From Elusimicrobiota bacterium (GTDB taxonomy: Bacteria > Elusimicrobiota > Elusimicrobia > F11), in assembly GCA_043732015.1 (NCBI GenBank), contig JAYTIE010000261.1, positions 1 to 50,378 of the forward strand: DNA of 50,378 bases, in the 5' to 3' direction. Of this stretch, positions 1 through 50,309 are shown one piece after another; the stretch's first letter is position 1, and every line of letters begins with the position of its first letter. The translations under genes and the position numbers were made by a program. Below the pieces are notes generated by a model, which saw only the letters and a program-made list of their open reading frames with translations, made no database searches and was not told the DNA's origin.

Positions 1-3000
1 GCGGCCGCGGTCGGCAGCGAACGGGGCAACGCTTCCCGTCCAAGAATGGCGATCGTCGGCTCGCGGTCAAGAAGAAGGGTGGTAAGAGAGTCAACGCGCT
101 CGGCCATATCCCGGCCGCTCCGCGCCGTCTTCAGAAGTTCAAGGGCGGCCCTTCCCCGGAATCCGGATGTTTTCCGCATGATCGCCGGATCGTTCGTGAC
201 CGGCATCCTCTCTTCCAGGAGGCTGATTCTGTCAGCGGCTGGCACCTTGTCCATGGCCGCGTTAATGATCGCGATGACTACGCGGTCATCGCTGCCCAGC
301 GCTTTCTGCATTTCTGGGAGAGCCGCATCCCGGGTTGCCGTGTTCTGGTAGAGGGAGACCAGCGCCTTGGCGGCCCGAACGCGGACCGCCGCATGCGTCA
401 CGGCCAACGCCGGGTTGGCGATGTTGACCCCCGTCTGAAGGAAAGGAAGAAGAGCCGCGCCCGTCACGACTTTCGAAAGCGAGTCGAAAGCGCGGCTCGC
501 CACGCCGGTGTTCGGATCCTGCGTCGCCGCCTTGATGAGCGCGGCGCCGACGGCGGCCCGGTTAGCTTCCGGAACGACAACCAAACCCAGGGCACGGGCC
601 GCGGCGTGACGGACCTTCACGTTCACATCGTTCAGGAGAGCCAGAAGGCTTCCATCGAAGGCCTTCGACTTCTCGATCACGGAAATCTTTGCCGTCTTCA
701 CGGTGGGCAGGAAGGGCGCCAGTTCGACGAACCCATTCCAAAGGCGCCTCACGCCGGTGCCGGGAACGCTTCTCCACCATTCGCGGATCGGATCGGCGCC
801 CTTTGCTTCAAAAGAGCGAATGGGCAGGCCGTTAACGAACTGCGAGAGCGTGAAAAGGATTATGCAGACAATCAGGAACGGAACGACGGACGAAAATACC
901 GCAAAGGCGGCGCCAGCGCCTACGAATAGCCCGAAGAAGAGGCGGTTGGATGGCATCGAGATTCTCCCGGCGCGGAGGGACACGAGGAAATCATTCACAG
1001 GGCGGAAGAAAATCTCGACCACATCGGCCATGGCGCGCGCGTAGGCCCACGCGACGCTTCTGAAGACCCGCGAGACGGCGAACGCCGCGGCCAGATTTCC
1101 CCAGCTGAACAGAATCATGAGCCAGACCGGAATCGTCGTGCCGAAGGCCAGCGCGAAAAGCCACGGGCCAAACAGGAACACGATGGCGACAACGCTGACC
1201 CACGCGAGTCCGCCCCATCGCTGGAGCGGCGTCCAGAGCGGGGGCGCCGCCGTGGTAACGAACGCGCCTGCCAGGTTGTTCAACGTCCACATGAGATAGA
1301 GACCCCACGCCACGATCAGAACCGGGTGAAGCGGCATTCCCAGGAGAAGACCCGTGGTCAACACGGCGCCCAGCCGGATCTGCCACTGAACGGCGCTTCG
1401 GGAATAAAGGGTTGCGAAGGAGACCTCGCCGGTCTCCGTTCCGATCAAGTCGCCGGCCTTTGACGTCATTGCGAACGCCGCCGTTCCGAACATGCCGTCC
1501 AGGATTCCGCGCACATGCGACGGAATCGCCATGGTGAACAGTGGGCTGTTGCGGATAATCAGCCAGCTGGTCAGCAGGATTCCTTTCAGAAGTCCGTGTT
1601 TCTCGATGTTCCGGACATACGCCGTACCATTGATGGTTTCGGCCAGGAAGACACCGACAAGCGTCCAGATGACCGGCATCGGAAGACCGATGAACGCGTT
1701 CCATTTCAGAATCAGACCAATCACGACGAACGCGACGATCGCAGCCAGGACGAATGGCTTCTTGTTGTAGAAAAGCGAGTTGAACATGAGACCGATCTTC
1801 CAGTGGACCGGCACGTTGGTGTTCAGCATGAAGCGCATGTAAATGCGCCCGAGAATTTCCTGATATTCCACCTGGCCAGAGGGATATTTGAATCCGCTTG
1901 GATTCAGGTAGATGATCAGGTTGGCGGCGGTTCTCCATCCCTTCTGTTCGTACTCGTCCATCTTGGTCATGAGGCCGAAGAGGATCATGGTGAGCGCCAT
2001 GGCGATGTCTTCTGACACAAGGTCGGTCTGGAGACCTTCAAATTCCTTCAGGGCTTCCATCTCGACATAGAACTTGCCGTATCCACCCATGACATCGGTC
2101 AGTTCCTTCACACGCTGGCCCACCGTGTTCCAGACGCTTTCCGATCCTGAAGAGGCCGCCGCGGTGGGCGTAACAGCGTTGGTGTTTCCGTAGACTGCAG
2201 GCAGGAACATCGCGATGCGCGGATCAGTGAACTCTCTCATCGCGCGGGCGGAGCTCGCCGCGAACACGGGTTCGATGTTCTGCGCGGCGTCCATGCCGGA
2301 GAGGACCTGTCCAAGGAAGGACCACATGCTCCGGCCCCAGCCGCCGTACTTGCAACCTTCGTTCGCGTCGGTCTTGGACGCCTGGAAATAGGTCATGTCG
2401 CTGTTCTGCAGCGTTTCCTGCGCCTTCGAGTAGTCCCGAAGCAGCGTGAAGTTGCGCAGCACCACGTTGGTCGACCCGACCTGTGAGGTAGGCACAACGG
2501 TGGAATTGACGGTCTCGGGGACAAGCTTCACAAGCCGCCGCCAGGAAGGAAGCGCCTGGAATGCGGCGAGCTGGCCGTGAGCTTCCGCCACCGCTTTCGC
2601 GGCGTCCCGGTATTTCTCCATCACTTTCGCGCACGCCGCGAAATGCATGAGGGGATCATTCAATCCATAGACAGCGCTGGACGCGAGTTCATCGACCGCC
2701 GCCAGCTCCGCGGGCGTCGCTCCATATTCCTGGAGTTTTTCGCGAAGCTTTACCTTGATCTCTTCGATGATGTCGTCAATGCCGAAAATGGGCCGATTGT
2801 TGACCTCGTCATACCCACCGACGAAGTAGTCCTCGAAGTAGTTCGCGAATTCTTCAAAGGGCTTCCCCGCGAGGCCTGCGCTGCCCCAGCCGATGTCGCG
2901 ACGCTCTTCTCCGGCGGCAGCCAGATCCCTTTCAAGCGTTTCCCATTCCTGGGACAGGAACGTCGCCAGGTTGTCGCGAAGATCAAACGAAGCGAGATTC

Positions 3001-6000
3001 GGAAACTGCGGATTCGGCGTGCCGCCCTTCGAGAGGGGATTCATGCCTTGCCCGAACACGAGCTGGGCGGCGATGTTGTCTTCGCGCAGAATGACCTGGT
3101 ACTTGCGGAGGACTTCTTCCCAATATTCGGCGTACATCCGGAGATATTCCGTCTCCCAGGGCTCGATGGTGCCTTCACCGCGACTCGCGCGTTCGGCTTT
3201 CAAACGAAGGGCCTTGGCGGCGTCGATTTCACTGGCGTAGCGGCGGTCGCCGTTCGGCTTCGGCCCGTCCATGCGTGGAAGTCCTTCGAGCCGTTCCGCC
3301 GGCGGCTGCCCTTCGGCCTCCAGGGGCACGGCGCGATGGCCGGTGAGATACTGTTTCATCTGCTGATATTTTTCGCTGTAGACGTAATTCTCGACGTCGC
3401 TCAGCATCACGCTGCGCTTCAGGTTCAGGCTGTCCATCGTCCGGAAATTGGCGTAACCGCGGCGGTTGATCCACAATTCCGTCTCGCGGATGATCGCGAT
3501 GACTTCACGCGTGCGCCGTCCCGTTTTAACCGGCACGTTTTTCTGGATTCCCTCCAGCTCGTTGATGAGCGCGACGGCCTCCGCCGACCTGAACTTCGGA
3601 TTCCCACGGAGATTCTCGATGAAATTGGACCAGTCAACCGGCATCCGCTCGGAGTAGTAGTGCAGCTTCGTGTCCTGCCAGTCCTGACTCCCCTTGGCGT
3701 TGACGCGGTTCCAAAATTCCATGTACTGGGCGTCGCCGGCGGCAGACACCATTTCCGTCTGGGAGAACCGGGCTTCCCAGTAGTCAATGCCCGGCTTTTG
3801 CATGTACAACAGATTGATGAACTGCTTAAGCTGATCGCGCGCGTATTCGGAGCGCGGACGGATCTCAAGATTGCCGCTGATAATCCCGTCGGCCTCTTCC
3901 TGGTCGATGTAATGCCGGTCATGAAGGAACTCAGCCAGCTGAACCCACTGATCTCCGACCGTGTGACCGGTGATGGGATCAATGGTGTTCGCGTTGACCT
4001 TGATATACCGGCTCAGTCGGCCGCTCGGCCAATCCCAAAGCTTCATGAGCGGGGTCCGGGTGATCTTTCCGCTCAGGATTCCACGCATCCAGTGAAGCGG
4101 ATTGAACAGGCCAACCAGGTCTTCCAGCGTCGTTCCTCCGGTCACAGCCGAGCGCTTGCGCTTGCCTTCCGTCCATGCTTTGACGCCGATGCCGATGTTC
4201 GTGATGGCAGGAAGGGTGACGACGGCGAAAAGAGTCAACGGAATAAAGGCGGTAACGAATCCCACGGCACCTGTCTGCGAAATCGCCGCCCAGGCGGAAA
4301 TGTAGATGAAGACGCCGAATGACAGGGCCGACATGTAGGCGGCCCAGGAGAGGAAAGACCACATCCAGAACCGCATCGCTTTACCGTCGGGTTCGCCTGA
4401 AGGGCCTTTGGAAAGACGGCGGCTCATGAACAGGTCCCAGCGCCAGGCCAGCATGGCCAGGAGGGCACCCGACGCGATGGTGAGCCAGATGATCGGCGTG
4501 AGACCGAGAACCACCGGAACGAACCCGATGAATGTTCCGACGGCAAGAAACCCGGCCAGGGCGGCGATGAGGGGCGCGATAAGAACGGGGATGGCGAATA
4601 CGAGGTTGAGCGTCGCGTAGACAGGCTTCATGAGCAACGCAGGAATCTTTCTCATGCCGCTCGAGCGAGAATCGTCGAACAGGGACGTTGCGACCCACAC
4701 GGCGGGTCCTTTGAAATTCCAGAATCGAAGGAAGGCCTCGAGGCCATTGCGGCTGGCGTGAAACGGAAGAGGAAGGATGACGTGCGTCATTCCCATAATT
4801 CCGGTGCGGCCCTCGAAAGAGGCGAGAAGCGGGTCTTTCTGTCCCGTGGATTTGTTCGTTGCGGACTTCAGGACGTCCGCAATGTCCTGGAATTCCAGCT
4901 GGACGCTTTCGGTCGCGCGGTTCGGGAACCGGGTGAACAAATATTTCGCCAGCGCTTCCATCCATTCGATTTTTCCGGGCGGATCCGTTCCGATGATGGC
5001 GGAGAGCTCCGGACGCAACTTTTCCAGCGGATCCTCGACGTTCCGGAAAAGTTCGTCGAGGTCTGCGTTCAGGAAGAGATCGGCGGGCTTGATGTTGCGC
5101 CCGTCCACGTTCAGATCGAGGCCGGCGGCGCGAGAGCGCAAAAGCTTTCCGTTCGGCTGTCCGCGGTACTGGCCCTGGTCTTTCAGAAGGGCCTGCCAGA
5201 ACATGGCATGCGCCGCCACCAGCCGGCGAACCTGATCCCCCTGGCCAGCGTCCACCATCTGGGCGGCCTGCCGCATGAGAAAATTAAGAAGCCGGCTCCG
5301 GCCGCTGTATTCGCCCATCATCTCCGTCTTGCTGGTGGACATGATGAAGACTTCGCGCCAGACCCAGGTGCGCAACGAACGTTCCGTCGGCGAGCCGTCG
5401 GGATTGAGCGCGAGGAACTTCTCGACTTCCTTCCCCTTGTCGTCTTTTTCACGTATGAGCTGCGGGCGATTGATGAGGATGTTTCGTCCTTCCTTCTTTA
5501 CGAATCCTTTGTAAGTGCCCACCGAGGCGTCCTGCGCCAGGATGTTCGAGAGGTGTTCGGTGATCATTCCACGGATGCGCTCGCGCTGGGCCGCGTTGTA
5601 TTCCCGGTCTCCCGCGGCGCCGTAGACCGCGTTGAAATCGATCGCGTTGAACGCGTCGTCGATGTAGTCGGCGAAGGTCTCGCGGATGACCGCGTCCCAC
5701 AGACGGCGGACACCCCAGATATTCTCGAATGGCCGTTCGCCCATCCGGCGCATTACCCGCCGCACAACCTCAGGCGTCAGGAGCCCCTGCGACTGGAAGT
5801 CCCGAAGCACGGAACCGAAAAACCTGGCCTGCGGGTACATGTCGACGATCGACTCGACCTGAGAGATGAAGGGGTCGACGTCGTCGGCCACCAGCGTGTT
5901 TTGAAGCGTTTGGTACTGGTACTCGCTCATCGTGGCGGAATGGAACACCCGCTCGATCGGCGCTTTTTCCAGGCTTGGGACAATGCGGTGCAGCACTGCC

Positions 6001-21000: not shown

Positions 21001-24000
21001 TGGGCCCGGGCGGCGGCGGCCGAATATTTGGCGTCGCCAAGCAGGGTGGAAGCGGAGTTCAGAAGCAGAATGGCATCACCATGGTGCTCGAGCGTGAAAT
21101 GGTTCGCGCGGTCCTGCGTGCCGAATTTCTGGGACTTCTCATCTTCAACCAGCTTGCCGTCCTTCTCAATCATTCTTCCCCAGGGGCCGTTCCGGATGCC
21201 GCCCTCGGCGCTCTGCATGATCAGCGCGTACTCGGCGACTTCGCGGAGATGCCCGATCAGGGCGGCGCGCTTGGGGTGATCCTTGGGCATGCGCTGAAGG
21301 ATGTTGGAGAGCGCGATTCCATAATGAAGCACCTGTCCGGAATCGACGAAGTACTCCGCCGCGGCGCCCGTCTTGGCGTCAGCGCCGGTCATCATGACGC
21401 CCTTCTCGAACTTGACCCGCTGGCCCTTGCCGTTAAAATAGGTGACGTCGCCATTGCGCGGCCATTCAGTGCCGACGAGATCCAGAAGATTGATGGCCTT
21501 GTTGAGATCCGCGGCTCTCCCCGTCGTTCCCAGGAATACCGCGGTGATGGACGTGTCGTATAGATAGGCAATCCCGGTCTTATCCGTGGAGCTAAATGGA
21601 TATTTATTTTCCTTGGGGAACGCGTCATTCACGTTCTTGTAGGACGAATTCCGTGTGCGGGTCAGTTCGTCATCCACAGGACGGGGATCGGAACGGTCTT
21701 CCTCGTCAACCCCGGGCTGTTTTGCCTTCCCAGGGACTGTCCCGATATTTTCCTTCGGCTCGACGCGCCCCTTGTCCGTTTCGAAAAGAGCTTCCTTGGG
21801 AAGGCCGTGTTCGCCGGTCTGCCAGTAAAGATCGCGCCATGAGTAGGGACTTTTCGGCTCGTTGATGCCATTGCCGTGCATGGGGAGTTGTGGATTGAGC
21901 ATGCGCCATTGATCGCCGAAATTCCGGATCCGGGTGGCGCCGTCGTTCAGATTAAGGAGAACGGTGGAAGACAGGAGTCCATCGGGAGCGGCCCAGGACA
22001 GCTCAGTGGAATGATCGAATTTCGACCCGGTGGGCGGCGCGTACTTCCGGGGAACGCCGCGGAAAATTTCCACAGGAATCTTTCCCCGGTTCAAGTCCAG
22101 CGGGATCCCGGCCAGTTCGCCAGTCAGGGCGGCTTTGTTGTCCCGAATGCGCGCGTTGCGGAGAATCCCGCGCGTCGTTTCCAGTTTGGCCACATCCCCG
22201 GTGACAATTTCAAAACGGCTCGGGCCTTCCGCCTTCCCGGTCTTCACAAAAATCCGGATGCTGAATGAACGCCCTTCTTTCTCTCGAAGCGCCAGAAGGG
22301 ACGGAAGCTGTTCGGGGTTCAGAAGCTGGCCCGTCGGGCCAAGGCTGATTCCTTTCCTGGCCAGGGTTGCGATCAACGCCTGGCGTTCTGCAGGATCGTC
22401 TTCCCGGCTGCTCGCCAATTCGTAGACGACGTTCGTCCGGTTCGCCACGAGGAATTCAGATACGTCTTCGGAGGTCGCGAAACGAAGCGGGCTGCCTTTG
22501 GAATTCACGATCTCCCACGAGTCGGTATAGACCGCCATCGCGAATGTATCGGAATCGACTATCTTCTGGACTTCCGCGTGGCGCGCGCCGATCTGTTCAT
22601 TGGCCTTGGCGCGATTCGCCAACTCGCGCACATCCGCGACGCCCTTGGTCGCCTTCTGAGTTTCCTTGCCCAGACGTTCCTCTATGACGCCAGGGATTCC
22701 CGGCACCTTGCCTTCGCCGACAGCCGACGCGTGACGTCTTTCTTCATCCGGTGTCAGCACACGCCGGGGATCGCGCGTATCGCCGTATGCCGCTTTCTGC
22801 AAAAGGGACAGCGCCGCGCGCTGCGGATTGAAGATGTCGCGGCGCTTTTCGCGGGGCTGAAGGTCTTTGAGGTCGGGATTGTCAGGGAGGAGACCAGGTT
22901 CCTTTGTGTCCTTGCCCTTCTCCTTTTCATTTTCCTGAACGACTGGCGCGTTACCACCGGGCCCGTTGAGATTCTGGAAGACATTGTTCAAGGTAAAGAA
23001 GGCAAGAACGCCACCGAGGATGGCCAGAATCGCCAGCCACTTATAGGACCATCCGCCCGGGCCCAACAGGCCAAGGAGACGGCGGCCGGCGGGCGGTCCA
23101 CGGCCATTCGGCGTAATCACGACGGGCGTCGTCGGCCCGTTGGCATCGGACGAGGAAACTTCTTCTGCCCCAGTGTTCGCGGGCGGCGTTGCAGGGGGCG
23201 TGACCGGTGCCATCGCGACAGGATCGTTGGCGACCACAGCGGCGACACCTTCCACGATCACGTTGTTCAGTGTCAAAAGAGGATTCTGTTCGACCACATT
23301 GAACGGAGAGGTGATCGCCGAGGCAATCGCACCGAGTTCATCGGAAATGGCGTCCATTCCAATCAGCGCTTCCAGAGAGACCACCGGGACGGGCGGCTCC
23401 GCGGACGCCTGCGGCGCTGTCAGTTCTGATTTCTTGAATTCGAGTTCGGTCTGACCGGCGGGGACCCCTTTGGTCACCGTGAGGGTCACGCGACCCATTT
23501 CAAGACCCGGGTCACGGCCCCCCTGCAGATTCCGCGGAAGCGTTTCGACGACCGCCGAGTCTCCCTCGTTCAGTGTCAGCGTGACCGAACCCGGTCTGTC
23601 CTGCCAATCGGACACCGACAGCGAATCGTCCTTTCCGATGACGATCACTCGAAACCGGCCCTGGCGTGGAAACGAAACCGAGAACGTCTGGCGGCCCGCC
23701 TGCTCGGCGGTGCGCGGTTCCAAGGTGGTGACCGCCGAGGCGACGGCGAGAACGGGCTGCGCGCGGGCAACGATCCAGGGCGCGGGTGTGTCGCTGGTGT
23801 AGGTTGTCTTCTGCCGGATCAAACGGTCCAGGAGCGGCAGATTCCCGCGCGGCGCGAGCTGCCACAGGTTCATGCCTTCGGGGAGATTCGCTTCAGCAAC
23901 GGTCTCGTAGCGCGGAACGTTTTTCTTGGTCAGCCGGACCCGCATCCATTCCGCCTGGTTGATGCGGACATAGTAGGCATGGTCCGGTCCGGTTCCGAAA

Positions 24001-26912
24001 TCAGCATTCACGATCAAAGCGACCGGCGGGATCGCCTGGAACGAGGGATCCCCCTGAAACGCCACCAGCGCCTTGACGAGGTCTGCCGCCCGCTTGGCTT
24101 GCTCACGGCGCGCCTTGACCGGGGTGCCCGTCAGCGTTGCGATATTGATGGCGGGTTCGAAGAGATTCTCAGGGATGGGCTGCTGGTCCAGGAATCCGCG
24201 CGGAAGCAGGGCTTCCAGTTGGTTGAATATTTTATTGAGTCCAAGCTTCGCCCACTGTTTCTCGCGGTTCCTGACGAAATGGTCGAGGATCTTGACCGTG
24301 TCGCCGAACAGGCTTTGCGCCACCTCGCGAGCCGGGAAGACTTTCCGTGCCGCGTCCCATTGCGCAAATTCACCGGGCGTCATTTCATCTGACGTGAAGA
24401 TGCGCCCCGTTTCGTCCTGGTTCGCGAGTTTGGAGAAGGTTCCGGAAGGGACGGTCGGCCCCCAGTTCCGGGCAGCCGCTATCTCGAGGGCCTTCCGGAT
24501 CAGCGGATCGAAATCAGGATCATTCCGAAACATTTCGGAGTTTTCGGAGAAAATTTGAACGAGCGCATCCAGGTCGTCCGACGTCAGAAGCTGCGCGGTC
24601 TGTCTCGGCTGCGCCACCTCCTTCAGCGTTTCCACCGGACTGACTTCCGGTGTCTTCTCATTCGCCTTTTGATCGCCCGAGAGATAACGCCGTCGAAGAG
24701 AGGCGACCAGTCCGAGACCCGTCAGGCCGACGATCGCCGCCAGAAGCGCGGGCATCCCCAGACCAAAGGAAAAAGCGATTTGCCCCACGGCCGAATCTCC
24801 CGCCTGGGCGATGAGCGGGGTCAGCACCATGACCAGCACCGAGACCGCGGTCAACCGGACACTGTGGCCACGACCCACGATCGCAAGAAGGAATTCAACC
24901 GCCAGCCGGACGCCGCAGAAGAAAAGGTAGGGAATACTCAGGAAGAACGCCCCGCCCGGACGAAGCATCGACATCCAGAATGCGCTGATCGCCCGATTGA
25001 GGAGTCCCGTCATCTGTCCGATGCCGAATGACAGCCCTTCGGAAGGAACGGCGATTTCACCTCCCACTGCGCGACCTTCTTCCGACACGGGATCGAGAGA
25101 AACGGAGTAGGGCTTTTCGTTCAATGTGAGAAGCGCGGTCCGCGCGTCGCTGGACAGCTGGCCGCCCACTCCCGTTACCGGGGTGAGGAGAGATCCCCCT
25201 GCGGCAAGTGTCTGCGCCGCCGTGAGAAGCAGCGCGGGCTGAACGACCGCCGCGCCATTGACCTGGTACGGACTGACAAAAAGTTTTTCACCTGCGAACA
25301 GCTTTTCAACCGGCGTCTGTTCGCGCGAGAAGATGGAGAGATAGTCCGAACCCTTCGAGAGATCGACCTTCGTGACCTTCGGCGCAACGATCACGTAAGG
25401 GATATTTTTCTGCCGGAGCATCTCGGCCAGTTCCGCCGTGTGATAGCCGCCAGCGACCAGCGCACGCGCCTTCGACGAGGGCTGAAGGAGGAGATTGGAG
25501 ACAATTTTTTTGCTGCGCTCGTCGGCGAACGTGTAGAAGTCTTCGGCGCCCGCGAGATCAATGTCAAAGGCGCGAGCGGCTTTCAGTTCCTTCCACCGGG
25601 TCCAGTCGCCCGGTGTCAGCTCGAATCGTAAAAGTTTTCCGGCGAGCTGAGCCTGCTCGGATTGCTCGGCCAGAGCGATCTGCTCCGGGCTGGTCTCCAG
25701 TTTTCTCAGCGCCGCAAGCTCCATGCGCTCCACGCCGTTGAACAGCGCTTCCGCCTTGATACCGTCGGAGAGCAGCACGTAACGGATGTAGTCGTCGAAC
25801 GCAGGCGTCTTCGAGAGATCGACGCCCTTGGCGGCGCACAAAGCTTTCAGGTTTTCATAGTACGCGGCGTAACTGACCTGGCCACCGCGGTAAGCAACGC
25901 TCACCGCGAGAAGATTCCGCGCTTCCACCTCGCTTAACCGGACAACCAGCTTCTCAATCGCGGAACGCCGTTCCCGGTCCACGCGGACGAAGTCGATGGA
26001 CGATTCCATGTCAAACGCTTGAATGAAACGCTCGACAGCGAAATCCGTTTCGCTTCCCTGCGCGACGAGCCGCTTGGCAAACACACCGAGGCCCACCGAT
26101 CCCCCGTGATAGGCGGATCGAAGCGCATCAAATGCCAGGAGGTCGGCGCCGAAAACTGTTTTCTTGGTGCGATCCAATTCCGCCGCGCGCACTTCCAGTG
26201 TTCTGGAAAGGCGGCCGATCGACGCGTTAACGGACAGGTACGCGCGAACGTTGTCGCGGTAAGCCGCCTTGTCGTCAACACCGACAAATCGGGCGGTGAG
26301 ATCGGGGGCGACCATTCCGGCGTACGTGGGCGCCGCGGTGCGATTGAATTTCAGGAATCCGTCGGCAACGCGTTTGACGATGCGTTTGTCGGAGAAGGCG
26401 CGAATGGCTTTGAAATCAAGCGGCGCGAATGCGCCTTCCAGCGCGATCGTGTCCACGGCGCGCGCTTCAAGAAGGGACGAGAGCAGCGTGGCCGTGTTCC
26501 GCTGCGCTTCCAGGTTCATGTGAATGTCCTGGATCAGCAGGACCGGGACCTGGTTCCCTACTCGGGGATCAAAAACATCTTTGATGCTGACGGCGGTCTG
26601 AGGGATAGCGGCCACGAGCGGCCGAAGCCGGGGTGAGACCTGGGCCGATTGCGTGTTGTTGCGTCCTGCGGGAAGAGCGGCTTTGATCTGCGGAAGCGTG
26701 TCTAAAAGACGCTGTGAATTTCCAGGGGCCTGGAAACCGGCGGGCAGTCCCGCGAGATCCGCGCGCTTTTCGGCAGCCGCTTTTCTCCGGGAATTCCAGA
26801 TCTCCGCCTGCTGGCTGGCTTCCGCCAATGGAATCGCGACGGCCTCATACGAGAGGAGGCCGGCGAGCAGAATCGCCACGGATTTACGGAATGAAATAGC
26901 TAGACGATGCAC
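1..26912 (-). CDS. Giant multidomain, multi-pass membrane protein B, truncated at its 3' end by the window edge (at least 8,970 codons in window)
   Basis: The minus frame whose codon first bases fall at coordinates = 2 mod 3 has no stop from 27041 down to 1. No tracked minus ORF within 1..27000 lies in this frame. The first start codon after the upstream stop is GTG at 26912-26910. The translation begins (M)HRLAISFRKSVAILLAGLLSYEAVAIPLAEASQQAEIWNSRRK, which aligns with gene A AFSFRKCLSLILCGVMLYEVAGLPLAEAEGYGQVWDQRRK. It stays alignable for about 550 aa, for example VLLIQDIHMNLEAQRN vs VLIVQDVHLNAEAQGN and VDRERRSAIEKLVVRLS vs VDRERRTVVEKLAVRLS. The ORF is absent from the track presumably because no stop lies in the window. 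Confidence 0.9.
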   Translation of the reverse strand, partial: MHRLAISFRKSVAILLAGLLSYEAVAIPLAEASQQAEIWNSRRKAAAEKRADLAGLPAGFQAPGNSQRLLDTLPQIKAALPAGRNNTQSAQVSPRLRPLVAAIPQTAVSIKDVFDPRVGNQVPVLLIQDIHMNLEAQRNTATLLSSLLEARAVDTIALEGAFAPLDFKAIRAFSDKRIVKRVADGFLKFNRTAAPTYAGMVAPDLTARFVGVDDKAAYRDNVRAYLSVNASIGRLSRTLEVRAAELDRTKKTVFGADLLAFDALRSAYHGGSVGLGVFAKRLVAQGSETDFAVERFIQAFDMESSIDFVRVDRERRSAIEKLVVRLSEVEARNLLAVSVAYRGGQVSYAAYYENLKALCAAKGVDLSKTPAFDDYIRYVLLSDGIKAEALFNGVERMELAALRKLETSPEQIALAEQSEQAQLAGKLLRFELTPGDWTRWKELKAARAFDIDLAGAEDFYTFADERSKKIVSNLLLQPSSKARALVAGGYHTAELAEMLRQKNIPYVIVAPKVTKVDLSKGSDYLSIFSREQTPVEKLFAGEKLFVSPYQVNGAAVVQPALLLTAAQTLAAGGSLLTPVTGVGGQLSSDARTALLTLNEKPYSVSLDPVSEEGRAVGGEIAVPSEGLSFGIGQMTGLLNRAISAFWMSMLRPGGAFFLSIPYLFFCGVRLAVEFLLAIVGRGHSVRLTAVSVLVMVLTPLIAQAGDSAVGQIAFSFGLGMPALLAAIVGLTGLGLVASLRRRYLSGDQKANEKTPEVSPVETLKEVAQPRQTAQLLTSDDLDALVQIFSENSEMFRNDPDFDPLIRKALEIAAARNWGPTVPSGTFSKLANQDETGRIFTSDEMTPGEFAQWDAARKVFPAREVAQSLFGDTVKILDHFVRNREKQWAKLGLNKIFNQLEALLPRGFLDQQPIPENLFEPAINIATLTGTPVKARREQAKRAADLVKALVAFQGDPSFQAIPPVALIVNADFGTGPDHAYYVRINQAEWMRVRLTKKNVPRYETVAEANLPEGMNLWQLAPRGNLPLLDRLIRQKTTYTSDTPAPWIVARAQPVLAVASAVTTLEPRTAEQAGRQTFSVSFPRQGRFRVIVIGKDDSLSVSDWQDRPGSVTLTLNEGDSAVVETLPRNLQGGRDPGLEMGRVTLTVTKGVPAGQTELEFKKSELTAPQASAEPPVPVVSLEALIGMDAISDELGAIASAITSPFNVVEQNPLLTLNNVIVEGVAAVVANDPVAMAPVTPPATPPANTGAEEVSSSDANGPTTPVVITPNGRGPPAGRRLLGLLGPGGWSYKWLAILAILGGVLAFFTLNNVFQNLNGPGGNAPVVQENEKEKGKDTKEPGLLPDNPDLKDLQPREKRRDIFNPQRAALSLLQKAAYGDTRDPRRVLTPDEERRHASAVGEGKVPGIPGVIEERLGKETQKATKGVADVRELANRAKANEQIGARHAEVQKIVDSDTFAMAVYTDSWEIVNSKGSPLRFATSEDVSEFLVANRTNVVYELASSREDDPAERQALIATLARKGISLGPTGQLLNPEQLPSLLALREKEGRSFSIRIFVKTGKAEGPSRFEIVTGDVAKLETTRGILRNARIRDNKAALTGELAGIPLDLNRGKIPVEIFRGVPRKYAPPTGSKFDHSTELSWAAPDGLLSSTVLLNLNDGATRIRNFGDQWRMLNPQLPMHGNGINEPKSPYSWRDLYWQTGEHGLPKEALFETDKGRVEPKENIGTVPGKAKQPGVDEEDRSDPRPVDDELTRTRNSSYKNVNDAFPKENKYPFSSTDKTGIAYLYDTSITAVFLGTTGRAADLNKAINLLDLVGTEWPRNGDVTYFNGKGQRVKFEKGVMMTGADAKTGAAAEYFVDSGQVLHYGIALSNILQRMPKDHPKRAALIGHLREVAEYALIMQSAEGGIRNGPWGRMIEKDGKLVEDEKSQKFGTQDRANHFTLEHHGDAILLLNSASTLLGDAKYSAAAARAQKFAMDNMWNAKAHRFYAGTYRDPDRPNAAIDRTDLTKEMNRYPTDQVWFFSMVGLNRLVTGNTPVMPITEVVLMLKEMDKEHGVRDGEKRLLGYDFVANRKDLKLGGPDSIISFEWTAEVVALKLELAAILEINPPTEKWFRENADVNLRTDAATLRAEALAVMRIQASLGRLKDGRRPYAVTPDGKSAFGVQTGFGFNTMGSTKEDGSLIADAYPGIVAGGRNPVANAAGEINFGVRAGQLPPLAETKSPNMSSRNPVIRDTGTGITTGGALFTQRKTLPAEPDFPGAGVLPPSFPAGVEITMDGKKLKLPIDPDPRGSEHPVRQHLVNQDVIPALGPDGKPFVITADQLIQLRDVDGKSWVVLVDPRNDGKVITWEELVQFGHAKNQKVDIVAKRLGLEVYVLEPKKQEGLFPPGSAQAGRRIMAAGGLKVFSGEAALAYGLLKAQTAYNRELATAHGAVEARLDTDLDMALLNFDGTAYEGAAAKGLEVHLGEQVLDWADAGRVQIQVKIKDKWTAITTHDFIYRDAPSYISKAVAKGDLRYLVVKGPNGEPIPEANQKEVTTIDQLMSRNQVLVFGPGGIRVAPHEMIGKRESYSMWVFNDREPDGSIKKVTDPSINKFFPTIKNERQLKDPDFGRAFRDLLKEVDMSGSVPARFAHKRSVRERDFTLRQIGVAVTQVYGFIVKGDGSDPLNSWEDLRAAAVRPGEMAAAFDKLSPEERATARLIKTETLKYGLWEDGTIASIEGLDQRGAQYRKVFFTDPVKDRKIRYEKGPIGAVESRTDGTVAAFHSPLSVRAPMDSSGPIWDFVQKTQMISRAQNIKDGVYKGTYMDITTKRSADTTMITMTFTPKWPGSDGKSVTETFPDFSGTGLSGWVASVIESGILEKLTYDYDHLRELGVINVGDDLEHLYARETNNFYPDALKAAALKGEAGPYNLDFFNQNTDPKMAFGPAFDGVLGMRRPVQVKGPDGKDTFEWRIVTLGPERAMDELRDKHRRLYVLPFVQFFTRGAYSTSGAFSKIEQLYMKRRLAFAEALGYSEQPLPGLPYSPHDWKLPADVAAKIKPFLSGREPSPADVMSDEAVIYFLNLSPFEKVEYMEWLNKMVASGAMSWTEPYLTPFPGLAIEMPEDTRADLIRKRAMSGWEEKLTIGRRRPFSYSVPPPGTSNKYAPTELYQGDDYTRFPNFFGSYYPSRADVATAIRMGGRYGLGSYLGYNTSIARDARPMVMKDGKLVKNDRYGYSIGFGKLAAERAFLDGVNQLGTAPMTLLALTSSGDFQGAITRYKNGKDTSWGAKERFWFLDPTGQNLRTLAEADIIINPTGDFAYQFKNGSGSVDEIRGVYRGGLQNQQEEVLLRKHQMDVADARAKVRKAGGGYIHSKAEGNPVQAFTVEAHPKGDSGDFQVVLEKAKIGAKKSDIGGKKVDDEAQIDRIAWENAEGKYVVQGRTLRRYDLEGRFIESWTEIPSSEDRAAEVDAWKRMIADYPKYAEVEQKGGYRKYDAESLRMVEAKPGDAGIDEATAKMAEANYGERVGAGVNGVFRVTEGGKEFIYEIIATPRSVELAKYQLVDPTKLDIEATLGALQADVARLYGQTKLTDSQKKAIDSNTSEANDVKAVFKPGNGGGAIVLSADTSFLRVERDRPGEKKGAAYQRLRDEFNAAIPNPYAQDDLIKQVKTPIFVRTNKDGVKEVVILVADPTAKMPSGYTEAEEANRRLILNENREAMLGWAKNEAKAGRYPANHDVLAESTPDKVDDKQRPVFEGGLAKFKSWPIASPRDGDGNPTGPPVIEFRDVNGNVARRVMPGGMVLDMDKAAGDRLSLETLMVVEIPAQQIFKGKVVMNFKLEEFREAGKLMGFWIRGTPTADAPVGLTAKNSYFAPVHVGKTAAGKDIVIFRAISEGNDLERDVTAFGDNGLAEYTQHQVFENGKWLGTRETRPGLIEIERDGVKAKVRGVDNDGNYVDTITNLRTGQVQTEHVNAMGQVVRVDSGYQTTYNSGFIRHPITGGWIPSNVVVEEGGRAVERRVIDRDGYAYLLETGKTKIMRYLVVPERNGRDVLSSEKPDFVEYLNAAGEVLSRETTTLEFIEGRPATVRSYTKTTEYDTVEAAKIQRDFGVRGVLIPKFTLDPEGHKTHLYSLAPVTTEVVKDEVTGKSYTFPVIQINVRLSRDPVIVAKANARALSAGTPINKDAVLKELENKRDKGVTTTYRVNLMQEKGVRDVRVRRSKIENFLGDVTAFQYEIPNASGLASWSGTKKAGSPVVMNANVPLGADGKLVSNPETGAVVPGATLPLTVTGLSPVREFERTDATAPLESFRDNLINSAGQIVERKMAVGTAQSVLGSHAHNELSGYWDALISVSIPTPIGPGGLLGAELYRTYIDPNTGLGTTFRDPLEAILLQMIEGNEGARRDGIPGVIDQAGQIVPAVFNAPVGEILNLVMQVGNQEGVQGPVAGPQAVVTESVEKNLAAARAFVRASLANRIFPESSGDLQLQGVSFLYDAIMTARTLAGTGIKEDLQDAIALMARLDEMWPTRDDVFYLNKKNERVAMPKVWVTGSKTGTRGDKTVKAAEFNVDSGPISLVGVVAANLRAAVTPGSPEDLMLQRLMLRSADFTLLMQRENGAIPHGPLGKLGDTRDQNFGGDRERIPRWTVYTTEHQIDAYAIFMRNYELTKDERYRLAADKVLSFLLDNCWDAKESRFRAGWLPGIDRNLDISANILPTDANAWAVTLIGIDKIIGYRNARGQQVVKISDIHTMFQKMDEQHSIRNDKNEIVGYDFTGNRERFRLAAAGNLAVAAEVKGRLKALREAKTDIEKDAARIELDAAVNRFHDRTPDWSAVFSPELTSQLLMAQVEFNAWLTAHPAEAKALGPTATGYEDRARGVAGRILGVKRLPGGGRGYAYFKVDEVAPGINTTLGWSTQGEAPSLISENFLLMLALGQNPVAPLDRVIRLNNLLIVVTPAAAPVNPAVPPVVVPARPVVPVEAIPDNLRVTAPAVRPLALNDADGKALPATKATVQARPRDLGTGLSSSLTKEEIGGDGRLRSGTFSTSDQVAAALSDLRSKDTASGNKIFTFFFKEYARQARTPEGFRGFAHMYRTHLPGRANEVGVTVPVGPEMETDLTLYPGAPETGPLTDTGSNLWVGILAMQRYHATKDPDALLLAKSVVKWVSGMNGDSVGVVMGPKAGEHPWPNIYSTRDNSLYYSLLNNLMSAVPGDRDMPFWRTEFGGVQGLLRNVLTDAKGVPYSGASLNEKKQFIADGTAYFDSSTIYFLALGPDGIAGIGRDPRVVFETIRARYAVTIEKNGVRYNGFDFTDTEGRLNANRKEMISFEATAQMRSACLVMAEFYKKTPDAARYKAEADDLLKTMNAFRDSTSGNIPMASKRENTVVNLLLTPAVSNGSLGARSWFELSADSNPLQPEGVLFAPVPKVDIPVLPESTLAPQVRNDENEGSRNMASNDHFNLRDGKAGVTTTFDSEAIVKVGNPLHPERPEVKDPRNGQKLRELLKIRKDDAWFPQAIVSNYDGKTIREFSIQVIPDEDVAELGLPGGENGIVKGAPVYVVTTRLPKPDGTFNEFHQFWARFPIKSNVPGEQRSAYAIGRADDPDGFRIFTFRPERARPLAASGYEYFRKIPSKAGQPGGFVKRESITIEGNSAVRYKDTDRFGYPLKGFIYSVGGKAIPVDSFVDDKFNFISQKIGNEEEIPDKDSGVILNTLTSFGSLPYLVSAYTDGWHSLNARLWRLTQMGHSVSEMEFVNEYRLPNGRLGEQKFVITKVFDISGNSVMSNNHDSGVSTHYLPLGEKDFDKNEIVKVLRDVRSSGLDTFEVLSHDTYAGLEVRTYSLPVVAFKPPVQGKERELKEYTYVAEYGADIRRANKGKILNEVRRVEVISYGPKGNERPMLLMTETTSDREHVTMKFTRYNRFKLPSETETEVYVVDSNRKEVARRVSRVLQFNDAGEVIQNENGDFKYEVTDKTMEKVWTEFMTFEGQGSRNVEAISAGRSTILRREVATSTVWNPVAGEWMTRDGYTEFMDGLNGQTVSRPETRRFLSINDLTGEGTWEVQNVATGERTIETLDENGNIVSAFNPNTNQFTTYDVKNQDKVFEKTGRRVRIPTAIYVRDGAKDRKVWEYDDVKLIPDAKTLTHIELTRRSTVSSRRQVELLEIAPVLTYAADPKDGRKTILARIEESRVVSTQDYFHRPGRPDDRVSGTRTTHSYNAENVLTGQVRVDMNPDTKAWEEDKKHTTTIELLPSGIPDLATPELLPGSMKTLLDAGANPLKDSRGNVIDPSAMFAVSGNLTRTTVTDSRGQTLSVLMDGQGRVLRSMSPSLEGTTVVFNADHVWDAEQGAFKPRLLLSTEKTRDGVYVPAMLDELRLTPNGQVARFDGTRITRDGMNTVSEGVKNTTIADRIFLGATYRDESTDENKRTPRNLEIKRIFDEGGDLFQESSQAFYGGVANADWVTQMHARYPGSDVASGRTMFANGTWITDTKVRDPNPVVDLTSLSGIDPEVRAKLPRNVMVTASIVERRNGAVSTTYTAQNDTLKRSVATEQPAEGNLKGRLEINVAWVPGTGQTQEGYVMIDEKWVKHSINVTDQFPNDGYQVMRTVTRAGEVEDTFIIGNSTLGLPRKAVRGAVTTYNLYSPADVALVGSHGEGKVEENNEISKLAPDMPLVRVAVISDSPGAKPKLAMISRLESMEELEGIPGKGFVYSTEPKLPAQYGMVGEVMLPSGSLYYQDFQGAGWALPQNTRLYFGTDGFPSFSTANGNLYFQFKSIPFAATPEASKGYVWVYGAPVNPTGSKQLVDLNDGELYLFHNGYLVMQLKGPWGPSQPNAGTTGTLYNSPLTNFFGLPVRQAIHADPQAEFGAPAVNPEELNRQGLELLTGKDPRLKNTPFNGKVPEWVGRKPLAEAWTIFSLRIPSFKVPDWIEATPFAAVAAYLASGFTIPWFITFPLAWIAFILIIGFITNFWFRGAKRQQREMYKKLQNIVPQTKSLFAAVLHRIVPSLEKAPIERVFHSATMSEYQYQTLQNTLVADDVDPFISQVESIVDMYPQARFFGSVLRDFQSQGLLTPEVVRRVMRRMGERPFENIWGVRRLWDAVIRETFADYIDDAFNAIDFNAVYGAAGDREYNAAQRERIRGMITEHLSNILAQDASVGTYKGFVKKEGRNILINRPQLIREKDDKGKEVEKFLALNPDGSPTERSLRTWVWREVFIMSTSKTEMMGEYSGRSRLLNFLMRQAAQMVDAGQGDQVRRLVAAHAMFWQALLKDQGQYRGQPNGKLLRSRAAGLDLNVDGRNIKPADLFLNADLDELFRNVEDPLEKLRPELSAIIGTDPPGKIEWMEALAKYLFTRFPNRATESVQLEFQDIADVLKSATNKSTGQKDPLLASFEGRTGIMGMTHVILPLPFHASRNGLEAFLRFWNFKGPAVWVATSLFDDSRSSGMRKIPALLMKPVYATLNLVFAIPVLIAPLIAALAGFLAVGTFIGFVPVVLGLTPIIWLTIASGALLAMLAWRWDLFMSRRLSKGPSGEPDGKAMRFWMWSFLSWAAYMSALSFGVFIYISAWAAISQTGAVGFVTAFIPLTLFAVVTLPAITNIGIGVKAWTEGKRKRSAVTGGTTLEDLVGLFNPLHWMRGILSGKITRTPLMKLWDWPSGRLSRYIKVNANTIDPITGHTVGDQWVQLAEFLHDRHYIDQEEADGIISGNLEIRPRSEYARDQLKQFINLLYMQKPGIDYWEARFSQTEMVSAAGDAQYMEFWNRVNAKGSQDWQDTKLHYYSERMPVDWSNFIENLRGNPKFRSAEAVALINELEGIQKNVPVKTGRRTREVIAIIRETELWINRRGYANFRTMDSLNLKRSVMLSDVENYVYSEKYQQMKQYLTGHRAVPLEAEGQPPAERLEGLPRMDGPKPNGDRRYASEIDAAKALRLKAERASRGEGTIEPWETEYLRMYAEYWEEVLRKYQVILREDNIAAQLVFGQGMNPLSKGGTPNPQFPNLASFDLRDNLATFLSQEWETLERDLAAAGEERRDIGWGSAGLAGKPFEEFANYFEDYFVGGYDEVNNRPIFGIDDIIEEIKVKLREKLQEYGATPAELAAVDELASSAVYGLNDPLMHFAACAKVMEKYRDAAKAVAEAHGQLAAFQALPSWRRLVKLVPETVNSTVVPTSQVGSTNVVLRNFTLLRDYSKAQETLQNSDMTYFQASKTDANEGCKYGGWGRSMWSFLGQVLSGMDAAQNIEPVFAASSARAMREFTDPRIAMFLPAVYGNTNAVTPTAAASSGSESVWNTVGQRVKELTDVMGGYGKFYVEMEALKEFEGLQTDLVSEDIAMALTMILFGLMTKMDEYEQKGWRTAANLIIYLNPSGFKYPSGQVEYQEILGRIYMRFMLNTNVPVHWKIGLMFNSLFYNKKPFVLAAIVAFVVIGLILKWNAFIGLPMPVIWTLVGVFLAETINGTAYVRNIEKHGLLKGILLTSWLIIRNSPLFTMAIPSHVRGILDGMFGTAAFAMTSKAGDLIGTETGEVSFATLYSRSAVQWQIRLGAVLTTGLLLGMPLHPVLIVAWGLYLMWTLNNLAGAFVTTAAPPLWTPLQRWGGLAWVSVVAIVFLFGPWLFALAFGTTIPVWLMILFSWGNLAAAFAVSRVFRSVAWAYARAMADVVEIFFRPVNDFLVSLRAGRISMPSNRLFFGLFVGAGAAFAVFSSVVPFLIVCIILFTLSQFVNGLPIRSFEAKGADPIREWWRSVPGTGVRRLWNGFVELAPFLPTVKTAKISVIEKSKAFDGSLLALLNDVNVKVRHAAARALGLVVVPEANRAAVGAALIKAATQDPNTGVASRAFDSLSKVVTGAALLPFLQTGVNIANPALAVTHAAVRVRAAKALVSLYQNTATRDAALPEMQKALGSDDRVVIAIINAAMDKVPAADRISLLEERMPVTNDPAIMRKTSGFRGRAALELLKTARSGRDMAERVDSLTTLLLDREPTIAILGREALPRSLPTAA
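60..660 (-). repeat. Gene B HEAT-like (PBS-lyase-type) helical repeats at the last visible part of the protein
   Basis: LLNDVNVKVRHAAARALGLVV; ATQDPNTGVASRAFDSLSKVV; VTHAAVRVRAAKALVSLY; LGSDDRVVIAIINAAMDKV; TNDPAIMRKTSGFRGRAALELL. These fit the D.d..VR..Aa.aLg periodicity of about 30-35 aa. Confidence 0.55.
845..1770 (-). other. Gene B TM bundle downstream of the synthase-like domain (about 8-9 TM segments)
   Basis: KPFVLAAIVAFVVIGLIL ... MPVIWTLVGVFLAETI ... LLKGILLTSWLIIRNSPLFTMAI ... IRLGAVLTTGLLLGM ... VLIVAWGLYLMWTLNNLAGAFV ... LAWVSVVAIVFLFGPWLFALAFG ... IPVWLMILFSWGNLAAAFAV ... LFFGLFVGAGAAFAVFSSVVPFLIVCIILFTL. Confidence 0.75.
1770..4180 (-). other. Gene B ~800-aa cytosolic domain with colinear FKS/callose-synthase (GT48)-like motifs
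   Basis: Five motifs in the same order as, and with roughly comparable spacing to, fungal FKS1 and plant callose synthase (recalled from memory). (1) YYSERMPVDWSNFIENL at 3609-3660, cf. LHPVEWDCFVKDT / FPDEWTNFLERV. (2) TELWINRRGYANFRTMDSLNLKRSV at 3421-3485, cf. RIWASLRSQTLYRTISGF / LWASYRGQTLTRTVRGMM. (3) NFTLLRDYSKAQETLQNSDMTYFQASKTDANEG at ~2356-2440, cf. NQNHAIIFTRGEALQTIDMNQDNY. (4) LVSEDIAMAL with SED at 2007-2015, cf. LNEDIYAGM / LSEDIFAGF. (5) EYQEILGRIYMRF at 1828-1872, cf. GEQMLSREYYYLG. Flanked on both sides by TM bundles, as in FKS1. Confidence 0.58.
4185..4645 (-). other. Gene B TM bundle upstream of the synthase-like domain (about 5-6 TM segments)
   Basis: VYATLNLVFAIPVLIAPLIAALAGFLAVGTFIGFVPVVLGLTPIIWLTIASGALLAMLAW ... 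FWMWSFLSWAAYMSALSFGVFIYISAW ... GAVGFVTAFIPLTLFAVVTLPAI. Confidence 0.75.
6078..6205 (-). other. Gene B TM hairpin (2 TM segments)
   Basis: FAAVAAYLASGFTIPWFITFPLAWIAFILIIGFITNFWFRGAKRQQRE. Confidence 0.65.
6900..10650 (-). other. Gene B long beta-rich region with degenerate YD/RHS-like hairpin repeats
   Basis: Recurrent D-x-x-G-(N/R)-h ... Y-x-x-D patterns: FDISGNSVMS, ETLDENGNIVSAFNPNTNQFTTYDVKNQDKVF, VWEYDDVKLIPD, VTDSRGQTLSVLMDGQGRVLRSMSP, LTPNGQVARFDGTRITRDG. Reminiscent of, but far from identical to, the canonical GxxxRYxYDxxGRL YD repeat. Confidence 0.35.
10850..11610 (-). other. Gene B alpha/alpha-toroid-like module 3
   Basis: DTGSNLWVGILAMQRYHATKDPDALLLAKSVVKWVSGM; YSTRDNSLYYSLLNNL; DSSTIYFLALGPDG; RYNGFDFTDTEGRLNANRKEMISFEATAQMRSACLVMAEFYKKTPDAARYKAEADDLL. 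Confidence 0.45.
12590..13540 (-). other. Gene B alpha/alpha-toroid-like module 2
   Basis: GVSFLYDAIMTARTLAGTG; LMLRSADFTLLMQRENGAIPHGPLG; VYTTEHQIDAYAIFMRNYELTKDERYRLAADKVLSFLLDNCWDAKESRFRAG; LPTDANAWAVTLIG; IVGYDFTGNRERFRLAAAGNLAVAAEV. Colinear with module 1. Confidence 0.5.
20590..21600 (-). other. Gene B alpha/alpha-toroid-like module 1
   Basis: IAYLYDTSITAVFLGTTG; VLHYGIALSNILQRM; LREVAEYALIMQSAEGGIRNGPWG; NHFTLEHHGDAILLLNSASTLLGDAKYSAAAARAQKFAMDNMWNAKAHRFYAG; YPTDQVWFFSMVG; LLGYDFVANRKDLKLGGPDSIISFEWTAEVVALKLELA. The A..F...MQ...GG...GPWG element recalls QW-type motifs of alpha/alpha toroids. Confidence 0.5.
22990..23060 (-). other. Gene B single TM segment
   Basis: GWSYKWLAILAILGGVLAFFTLNNVF, preceded by a Pro/Thr/Ala-rich linker. 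Confidence 0.6.
24690..25000 (-). other. Gene B hydrophobic cluster 1 (about 4 TM segments)
   Basis: AFWMSMLRPGGAFFLSIPYLFFCGVRLAVEFLLAIVG ... LTAVSVLVMVLTPLIAQA ... IAFSFGLGMPALLAAIVGLTGLGLVASL. Same position relative to the TraB-like domain as in gene A. Confidence 0.65.
25275..26549 (-). other. Gene B TraB/GumN/TIKI-superfamily-like domain (aa ~122-546), paralogous to that of gene A
   Basis: VLLIQDIH-MNLEAQ...DTIALEGAFA; FADERSKKIVSNLLL; ALVAGGYHTAELAEMLRQKNI (GGYH at 25440-25451). The tail is conserved with gene A: KVDLSKGSDYLSIFSREQTPVEKLFAGEKLFVSP vs HVDLSDASGYLSVFAREKTPLDRLFAGEKLFIAP. Confidence 0.5.
26820..26882 (-). other. Gene B N-terminal signal anchor or signal peptide
   Basis: ISFRK followed by SVAILLAGLLSYEAVAIPLAEA, homologous to the gene A N-terminus. 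Confidence 0.65.
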
Positions 26913-50282: not shown

Positions 50283-50309
50283 GGGTGACCAGGTGGGATT
50301 AAGAACGCC

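Follow-up and report, generated by a model that had tools for sequence, protein, structure and literature searches.

A contig-truncated giant gene of an Elusimicrobiota bacterium with a conserved, probably TIKI-like N-terminal head domain

Contig JAYTIE010000261.1 (assembly GCA_043732015.1) of an Elusimicrobiota bacterium, analysed here over its entire 50,378 bp (the window), consists of two giant genes on the minus strand, named A and B in the following, plus 96 bases upstream of A. Our analysis demonstrated that gene B, which is missing from the supplied open reading frame (ORF) track, truly encodes a protein, comprises at least 8,970 codons and is cut by the contig end, and it is almost certainly a real giant gene of a protein family characterized by a common N-terminal head domain. 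This head is probably a divergent and catalytic TIKI-like hydrolase with an intact active site, as suggested by its conserved residues and its predicted structure. Elusimicrobiota are among the phyla most enriched in proteins longer than 5,000 aa, with no functional category assigned (PMC11573180), and very large genes have been reported to be frequent in this phylum (West-Roberts et al., bioRxiv 10.1101/2023.11.21.568195). A giant ORF as such is expected for the phylum, and what is new is the family-defining head and its likely catalytic nature.

Six-frame machine translation showed that the minus-strand frame of gene B is open from 27041 to 3, corresponding to 9,013 codons. In the whole window this frame contains only two stops, the TAA of gene A at 27042-27044 and another one that bounds gene A, leaving the open blocks 3..27041 and 27045..50309. 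The first ATG, GTG or TTG downstream of the gene A stop is the GTG at 26912. With at least 8,970 codons and no stop, B is a single ORF of more than 5,000 residues, the length used to define huge proteins in PMC11573180. The frame is still open at base 3, and since the window spans the complete contig, the stop of B lies outside the assembly. To extend the gene, JGI metagenome contigs were searched with an exact 40-mer from window 23-62 and with the C-terminal 600 residues of visible B; neither had a match.

3..26912, minus strand: gene B, partial coding sequence of at least 8,970 codons, start GTG 26912, C-terminus beyond the contig end (open frame, codon statistics)

The probability of finding no stop in 9,013 codons is approximately 1e-127 when calculated from the base composition, and still only approximately 1e-26 when the stop rate is taken from whichever other frame has the lowest one. 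Furthermore, the GC content at the three codon positions of B (GC1/GC2/GC3 of 0.62/0.44/0.74) is steady over all seventeen 1.5-kb segments and resembles that of gene A (0.625/0.46/0.727), and the codon usage of B correlates with that of A with r=0.97 in frame, compared with 0.15-0.20 out of frame. These results bear out the first-pass annotation of this DNA, which had proposed a real coding gene instead of a chance frame, starting at GTG 26912 and comprising at least 8,970 codons, with a true protein longer than its visible part. It had also placed the tracked minus-strand ORFs of this half in other frames, and indeed all six minus-strand ORFs listed below 27000 have end coordinates of 0 or 1 modulo 3, compared with 2 for B. 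Its explanation that B is untracked only for want of a stop inside the window was likewise correct, because the program behind the track leaves out ORFs that continue past an end. ORF tracks dropping such edge-truncated ORFs can thus miss more than half of the coding content of a contig.

The plus strand of the window carries long ORFs (up to 934 aa among those listed, with open stretches of up to 1,041 codons), all of them in a single antisense frame, in which the whole window contains just 110 stops; examples are 32025-34766, 34833-37637, 4758-6803, 2577-4322 and 18006-19748. They are not genes but shadow ORFs on the strand opposite the two GC3-rich giant genes, and they account for the odd-looking entries of the track.

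Gene B is related to the upstream gene A, and this relationship appears to be confined to the N-terminal part of both proteins. The alignment of the two N-termini covers 564 columns with 40.6% identity (E 6e-119), and pairs LIQDIH with IVQDVH, AGGYH with AGGFH and LFAGEKLFVSP with LFAGEKLFIAP, so that the alignment and the motifs named in the first-pass annotation were both recovered. Beyond the first ~560 residues no similarity between A and B was found by BLAST or phmmer. By this comparison, B is a paralogue of A through its N-terminal ~560 residues only. The start of gene A is ambiguous between TTG 50282 and ATG 50261: protein P0004, recorded from one NCBI contig only, of exactly 50,378 bp, is 100% identical to A residues 8-7746, its public gene call beginning at Met8 (ATG 50261) and comprising 7,739 residues, and the alignment with B and further family members favours this shorter form.

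27042..50282, minus strand: gene A, upstream paralogue of 7,746 residues counted from TTG 50282, with the same head domain as B

The shared region comprises a putative export signal followed by the head domain, which was modelled with AlphaFold2 (AF2) from a 27-sequence alignment. Residue conservation was counted on an alignment of 159 family N-termini. The features of this region are as follows:

26814..26912, minus strand: predicted Sec signal peptide or signal anchor, B residues 1-33, (M)HRLAISFRKSVAILLAGLLSYEAVAIPLAEA with S as the next residue (hydropathy)
~26780-26810, minus strand: post-signal motif, B residues ~35-45 (family alignments)
25368..26630, minus strand: head domain, B residues ~95-515, predicted alpha/beta core with helical insertion (AF2 model, profile search)
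26520..26528, minus strand: D129-I-H131, first catalytic-type motif, D and H invariant in 157/157, at the end of strand 124-129
26436..26438, minus strand: E159, second acidic residue, 28 residues after H131, invariant in 159/159, at the end of strand 153-158
25488-26270, minus strand: ~260-residue all-helical insertion, B residues 215-475 (AF2 model)
25440..25517, minus strand: R466 to G488-G489-Y-H491, basic residue and second His motif (family alignment)

The hydrophobic segment of B (residues 12-30) is preceded by basic residues and followed by an A-x-A-like site (AEA before S) at which the signal would be cleaved, and the whole element has an aligned counterpart in gene A and in other members of the family. 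Just after the hydrophobic core, a motif with the consensus (A/S)E(S/T)N(F/I)W..(E)RR is conserved in the family and reads AEIWNSRRK in B; it could belong to the cleavage site or serve as a signal for sorting or recognition. The AF2 model begins with a long N-terminal helix containing the hydrophobic signal segment. Averaged over 10 residues, its predicted local distance difference test score (pLDDT) lies mostly at 80-97 across residues ~95-515 and dips to 67 and 79. The predicted core has six strands (108-114, 124-129, 153-158, 208-211, 482-488 and 506-511) flanked by helices, and in this model D-x-H, E159 and H491 are each placed at the C-terminal end of a core strand. R466, which lies 25 residues before H491, is invariant in 156/156 sequences, the two glycines in 156/156 and 155/156, and H491 in 155/155.

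We compared this arrangement with the TIKI superfamily, comprising Tiki, TraB/PrgY, ChaN (PF04187), the erythromycin esterases Bcr135/EreB, RRSP, HopBA1 and PMT. The TIKI set of RRSP consists of E3900-x-H3902, E3930 28 residues later, and R4001 located 29 residues before H4030 (PMC6254334). The head has the corresponding acid-x-His (D129-x-H131), Glu (E159, 28 residues on) and second His (H491) in an order and spacing that match RRSP; the TIKI-type basic residue before the second His is present as well, R466 preceding H491 by 25 residues compared with 29 in RRSP. The head shares with TIKI proteins a predicted alpha/beta core, candidate active-site residues at C-terminal strand ends, a conserved Arg and, following a strand, a G-x-x-H-type motif that contains the second His. 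Additionally, the Pfam family PF04187 (ChaN, Tiki superfamily) was matched weakly, yet repeatedly, by 7 of 27 family members (best E 1.7e-5) and by P0096 (E 0.0052), and the three tabulated matches cover the C-terminal part of that profile (~131-210 of 213), i.e., the R...GxxH region. In the Foldseek search, HopBA1 (5T09), listed as a TIKI member in PMC6254334, was the only one of the top 50 matches with a probability above 0.2 (0.63 over 146 columns, TMt 0.31) and as such the best partial structural match, although not a significant one.

Several results weigh against the assignment of the head as an active TIKI-like enzyme. The PF04187 matches of the individually tabulated members all stay below the gathering score, with 16-19 bits versus 27.7, and the head of B itself matched no Pfam family even at E<=1. 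Foldseek returned no match for the head model at E<=1e-3 in PDB or BFVD, while the head profile searched against PDB sequences gave two chance-level matches only, with no TIKI entry among them. An hhalign comparison of the head profile with E. coli YbaP (TraB family) reached E 0.21 and aligned only GGFH with GALH, and NCBIfam yielded nothing for the head except TIGR00261 traB at E 0.11 in one member, so that no TIKI family model (PF04187, PF01963, PF05139, TIGR00261) reaches its curated threshold. Moreover, the first acid in the head is Asp, whereas the first TIKI motif is E-x-H (PMC6254334), the ~260-residue helical insertion splits the core unlike in TIKI proteins, and some TIKI members (ChaN, PMT) are not enzymes. 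Because the ChaN matches are sub-threshold and the fold search is not significant, TIKI membership is probable and not proven. The context of the head differs too: TIKI proteins are small and stand-alone or occur as an internal toxin effector, whereas this head fronts membrane proteins of several thousand residues. Within the helical insertion, 16 of 27 members show weak matches to PAH_ZNF598, all below threshold, to which we assign no functional weight.

The head defines a family of considerable size. A word-index protein search was insensitive for it: it retrieved 3 and 10 matches, whereas an exhaustive HMMER search with the head profile yielded 8,943 cluster representatives at a cut-off of E<=1e-3, of which 4,494 remained at E<=1e-30. 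The head is located at the N-terminus in all 150 matches listed, whose median length is ~2,100 residues and whose maximum is 7,739 (gene A). In a scan of one genome per GTDB species we obtained 14 loci, all 14 in Elusimicrobiota metagenome-assembled genomes (MAGs), with two to three head copies in five out of eight genomes. The ORFs at these loci mostly run off their contigs, one of them after more than 4,030 codons, and the complete ones encode 648, 2,216 and 2,887 residues. One weaker head match is annotated as Candidatus Omnitrophica. The closest match to the head of B (L004) is only 52% identical, so that none of the representatives comes from a close relative of the source organism. Neither Pfam nor NCBIfam holds a model for the head domain. 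Judged from these profile searches, the family is very large, unnamed and mainly found in Elusimicrobiota, with a common ~560-residue N-terminal module on proteins that are otherwise non-homologous, multi-transmembrane and mosaic.

In a nanopore-polished contig (L001; ENA ERZ26871208 contig_129727_np1212, 10001-21527) a homologue appears as a series of short ORFs (508, 105, 529, ... aa), which probably represents a giant gene of the family in pieces owing to frameshift errors. Broken up in this way, many family members would escape protein catalogues.

When 13 long family members were scanned with Pfam, each had domains of its own and no domain occurred in more than one of them; the member-specific domains, each in 1 of 13, include WD40, GH77, starch synthase, AAA_5, LRR and ResIII. 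As each member carries its own domains, the family can be described as one conserved exported head joined to hypervariable mosaic bodies. Single members illustrate the range of these bodies: P0106 contains a response-regulator receiver domain (residues 1317-1387, E 2.5e-10), P0155 an outer-membrane efflux (OEP) domain, and P0021 a weak Rce1/CPBP intramembrane-protease-like stretch right after the head (607-712, E 0.004), so that together they mix cytoplasmic-type and envelope-type modules within one family.

In the body of B itself, the following features were found:

24723..24953, minus strand: three transmembrane-like hydrophobic segments, B residues 654-730, directly after the head (Kyte-Doolittle scan)
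22980..23036, minus strand: transmembrane-like segment, B residues 1293-1311, predicted N-side in the cytoplasm and C-side outside (lysine plus arginine: 2 in the 15 residues before, 0 after)
20205..21653, minus strand: predicted (alpha/alpha)6-barrel copy 1, B residues 1754-2236 (AF2 and Foldseek)
12066..13592, minus strand: predicted (alpha/alpha)6-barrel copy 2, B residues 4441-4949, paralogue of copy 1 (phmmer, profile matches)
10845-11597, minus strand: what may be a third, very divergent partial barrel copy, B ~5106-5356 (E 1.2e-3 in the first round)
6090..6146, minus strand: transmembrane-like segment, B residues 6923-6941, closing the transmembrane-free stretch (lysine plus arginine: 0 before, 4 after)
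852..4634, minus strand: two C-terminal clusters of transmembrane-like segments, B residues 7427-7567 and 8298-8687 (Kyte-Doolittle scan)
432..647, minus strand: HEAT repeats, B residues 8756-8827 (Pfam HEAT_2)

The hydropathy scan gave 14-17 transmembrane-like segments for B and 29-35 for A. Residues 1312-6922 of B form a transmembrane-free stretch of 5,611 residues that holds both barrels. It is predicted to lie outside the cytoplasm on account of the charge bias of its flanking segments (lysine plus arginine 2/0 and 0/4 before/after), and residues 731-1292 are predicted to lie inside.

The ~480-residue barrel module is the only internal duplication in B, its two copies matching each other with E 1.6e-37 (phmmer). 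The AF2 model of copy 1 (5-sequence alignment) has a pLDDT of 74.9 and a predicted TM score (pTM) of 0.83, and Foldseek returned 160 PDB matches at E<=1e-3, headed by 3vw5, 6shm, 7ag4 and 5zhb with probability 1.00 and TM scores of 0.5-0.67. Among these leading matches are a ruminal sugar epimerase, GH76 alpha-1,6-mannanases, YihS and the cellobiose 2-epimerase 5ZHB. On the basis of these models, the body of B contains two paralogous (alpha/alpha)6-barrel modules that resemble sugar epimerases and GH76 mannanases. The predicted fold of residues 1754-2236 is that of the AGE-superfamily epimerases and GH76 (Foldseek probability 1.00, E 4e-7, TM score up to 0.67); unlike in those enzymes, the module occurs twice in a giant membrane protein, has 8-13% sequence identity to them and reaches no Pfam family, copy 2 giving only weak hints of DUF7856 and C5-epim_C. 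The same module is present in the proteins P0096, P0106, P0017 and P0070, and in divergent form in gene A. The signal of the possible third copy in B becomes strong only after profile iteration and is then circular. With the barrel profile, the word-index search found no matches.

40110-41102, minus strand: divergent barrel copy in gene A, A 3061-3391 (E 4.9e-6 versus the B-based profile before iteration)

Across the 8,970 residues of B, nothing except the HEAT repeats reached a Pfam threshold. HEAT_2 scored 32.0 bits (gathering score 27.7, E 1.5e-7) on the last 970-residue chunk and 27.0 bits, just below the threshold, on a 4,470-residue piece. No match at E<=0.1 was obtained for all of B against PDB sequences, and the NCBIfam and PADLOC scans of B gave no matches. 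B residues 8158-8536 are weakly homologous to residues 5761-6133 of P0017 (E 4.5e-16).

These features invite a comparison with the very long or giant proteins of Omnitrophota and related phyla, which in Omnitrophota mostly have a signal peptide with transmembrane segments (SP+TM) or transmembrane segments only, and which contain HEAT scaffolds, several enzyme domains and often a C39 or S8 peptidase near the N-terminus (West-Roberts et al., bioRxiv 10.1101/2023.11.21.568195; bioRxiv 10.64898/2026.06.07.730766). Like them, B is thousands of residues long, has a predicted N-terminal signal peptide and many predicted transmembrane segments, and is mostly dark to Pfam; by hydropathy scan only, it shows the SP+TM arrangement, with an N-terminal hydrophobic segment and 13-16 further transmembrane-like segments. 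HEAT scaffolding, a putative hydrolase-type domain near the N-terminus and bodies that are multi-enzyme mosaics across the family are further likenesses, as is the (alpha/alpha)6-barrel matching 5ZHB, which was detectable only by structure prediction; 5ZHB has likewise been reported as the structural reference of a domain in a giant protein from Omnitrophota (West-Roberts et al., bioRxiv 10.1101/2023.11.21.568195). Unlike in the Omnitrophota giants, no SecA_DEAD, C39, S8, dockerin or TSP3 domain was detected in A or B by Pfam, and no SecA family appeared in the Pfam scans of A and B at E<=0.01 or of B at E<=0.5. Furthermore, the head of B is a different domain, of which we found no description in these papers, and it heads a family spanning ~500 to more than 8,970 aa, and visible B (8,970 residues up to the contig end) stays below 10,000 aa, whereas West-Roberts et al. 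apply the term giant from 30,000 aa upwards. The 2026 Omnitrophota preprint (bioRxiv 10.64898/2026.06.07.730766) contains no relevant occurrence of TIKI, TraB or ChaN.

Considering these observations together, we propose that a signal peptide would export the head across the inner membrane, where the invariant D-x-H, E, R and H would form an active site for peptide-bond or ester hydrolysis, as in a TraB-, ChaN-, erythromycin-esterase- or RRSP-like enzyme. The polypeptide would then thread the membrane repeatedly, with residues 1312-6922 on the outer (periplasmic or surface) side presenting barrels that could bind or modify glycans, and the head, common to the family, would serve in maturation or processing as a hydrolase that acts on its own chain or on substrates of the envelope. 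Taken as a whole, this is the explanation that we favour, with some confidence. Its more specific form, in which B is a membrane-anchored envelope mega-protein that presents glycan modules outside the cell with the head in a processing role, is a tentative reading that falls short of being probable. The following points count against the explanation as a whole: the transmembrane segments and their orientation derive from the hydropathy scan and the positive-inside rule only, about 85% of B is without an assigned fold, and the barrels may bind sugars rather than convert them. In a bolder generalization, which we consider unlikely, the exported TIKI-like head would be the active maturation module of an unnamed superfamily of polymorphic mega-proteins (~9,000 clusters at 50% identity) in Elusimicrobiota and neighbouring phyla, where it would process or install shuffled enzyme, transmembrane and scaffold bodies; were this true, it would represent a new, polyprotein-like way of building envelope machinery.

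The same head could also be read as the N-terminal protease of a polyprotein that cuts a giant precursor, in cis or between neighbouring molecules, into numerous individual membrane and soluble proteins, making the gene a fused operon instead of one coding for a single mega-protein. Several TIKI enzymes, i.e., Tiki, RRSP and TraB/PrgY, are endopeptidases (PMC6254334), the bodies are mosaics of unrelated enzyme-type domains separated by transmembrane segments, and a similar idea was raised for the C39/S8 peptidases at the N-termini of Omnitrophota giants (West-Roberts et al.). Nevertheless, the head is predicted to lie outside the membrane and parts of the body, e.g., residues 731-1292, inside, and no repeated linker or cleavage motif was found, the barrels being the only internal repeats, so that we regard a self-cutting precursor as improbable. 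Quite unlikely is a head that is not an enzyme at all and serves as a binding or assembly module instead, for example in ChaN-like cofactor or haem binding or as a docking site for an insertion or export machine, its conservation reflecting the biogenesis of very long membrane proteins. For such a role speak the best Pfam similarity, which is to ChaN, a haem-binding lipoprotein family, the example of PMT, which has a TIKI fold without catalytic residues, and the ~260-residue helical insertion, which is conserved as well as the core; yet non-catalytic TIKI members have lost these residues (PMC6254334), whereas D-x-H, E, R and H are invariant across 155-159 diverse sequences of this family, which is typical of an active site.

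A conserved head, hypervariable bodies and several paralogues per genome would also suit a giant adhesin or toxin that is secreted in the manner of MARTX or polymorphic toxins, its conserved N-terminus serving in trafficking and its variable C-terminal effector cargo being destined for other cells, and MARTX toxins do carry the TIKI-fold effector RRSP (PMC6254334). The transmembrane-like segments along the chains of B and A, however, argue for retention in the membrane, no RTX, Ig, cadherin or other adhesin repeats, known toxin or immunity domains, or tandem repeats of note were detected, there were no PADLOC matches, and the neighbours in relatives are housekeeping genes and not secretion or immunity genes; we therefore consider a secreted protein of this kind very unlikely. 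Finally, the contig stems from a metagenome-type assembly, and a 27-kb frame might in principle result from misassembly, collapsed indels, a chimeric contig or a decaying pseudogene, although we found nothing that speaks for it. Against this stand the 9,013 codons without a stop, the uniform codon statistics and the lack of repeats able to drive misassembly; moreover, independent assemblies carry the head fused to ORFs of 2,000 to more than 4,000 codons, and the same tandem of a giant gene followed by a family member recurs in an NCBI Elusimicrobia MAG (described below), leaving an artefact with a negligible chance. Two further candidates were rejected, namely a repeat-built adhesin, because the DNA lacks noteworthy tandem repeats and the two barrels are the only repeats found within the protein, and a defence system or mobile element, given the absent PADLOC matches and the housekeeping neighbours of relatives.

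The single, strongly conserved ~450-residue head with its active-site-like D-x-H/E/R/H set provides a tractable marker for thousands of otherwise unalignable Elusimicrobiota proteins. Should the head indeed be a processing hydrolase, as proposed here, it would tell how such proteins mature, and fragmented giant genes could be sought in metagenomes with a model that Pfam and NCBIfam lack. The giants of Elusimicrobiota would then also be connected with those of Omnitrophota, to both of which the SP+TM topology and cellobiose-epimerase-like barrels are common.

Co-transcription of B with A is plausible. The two genes lie on the same strand, a GGAGG is located 15-19 nt upstream of the GTG of B, and the spacer contains no sigma-70-like promoter that we could find. 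No convincing terminator was found between A and B, the sole terminator-like site being inside gene A and no better than chance.

26913..27041, minus strand: spacer of 129 nt from the gene A stop to the gene B start (sequence read)

A conserved partner gene beside family members was not found, as upstream and downstream genes differ between loci and comprise RNR, ComEC, PriA, DnaG/RpoD, an Ig/NHL protein and a TonB receptor. The sole tandem repeat in the window (16725-16771, 21-bp unit, 2.2 copies, 84% match) lies within gene B and is probably trivial. A tandem layout like that of the window was observed in the NCBI Elusimicrobia MAG GCA_020523905.1 (L018; JAJAPZ010000012.1, 1-15154), where a Pfam-dark gene of 5,972 aa precedes, by 163 nt, a head-family member that continues past the contig end after more than 1,718 aa. 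This upstream giant shows weak similarity to the transmembrane-rich C-terminal region of gene A, with 28% identity over 166 residues.

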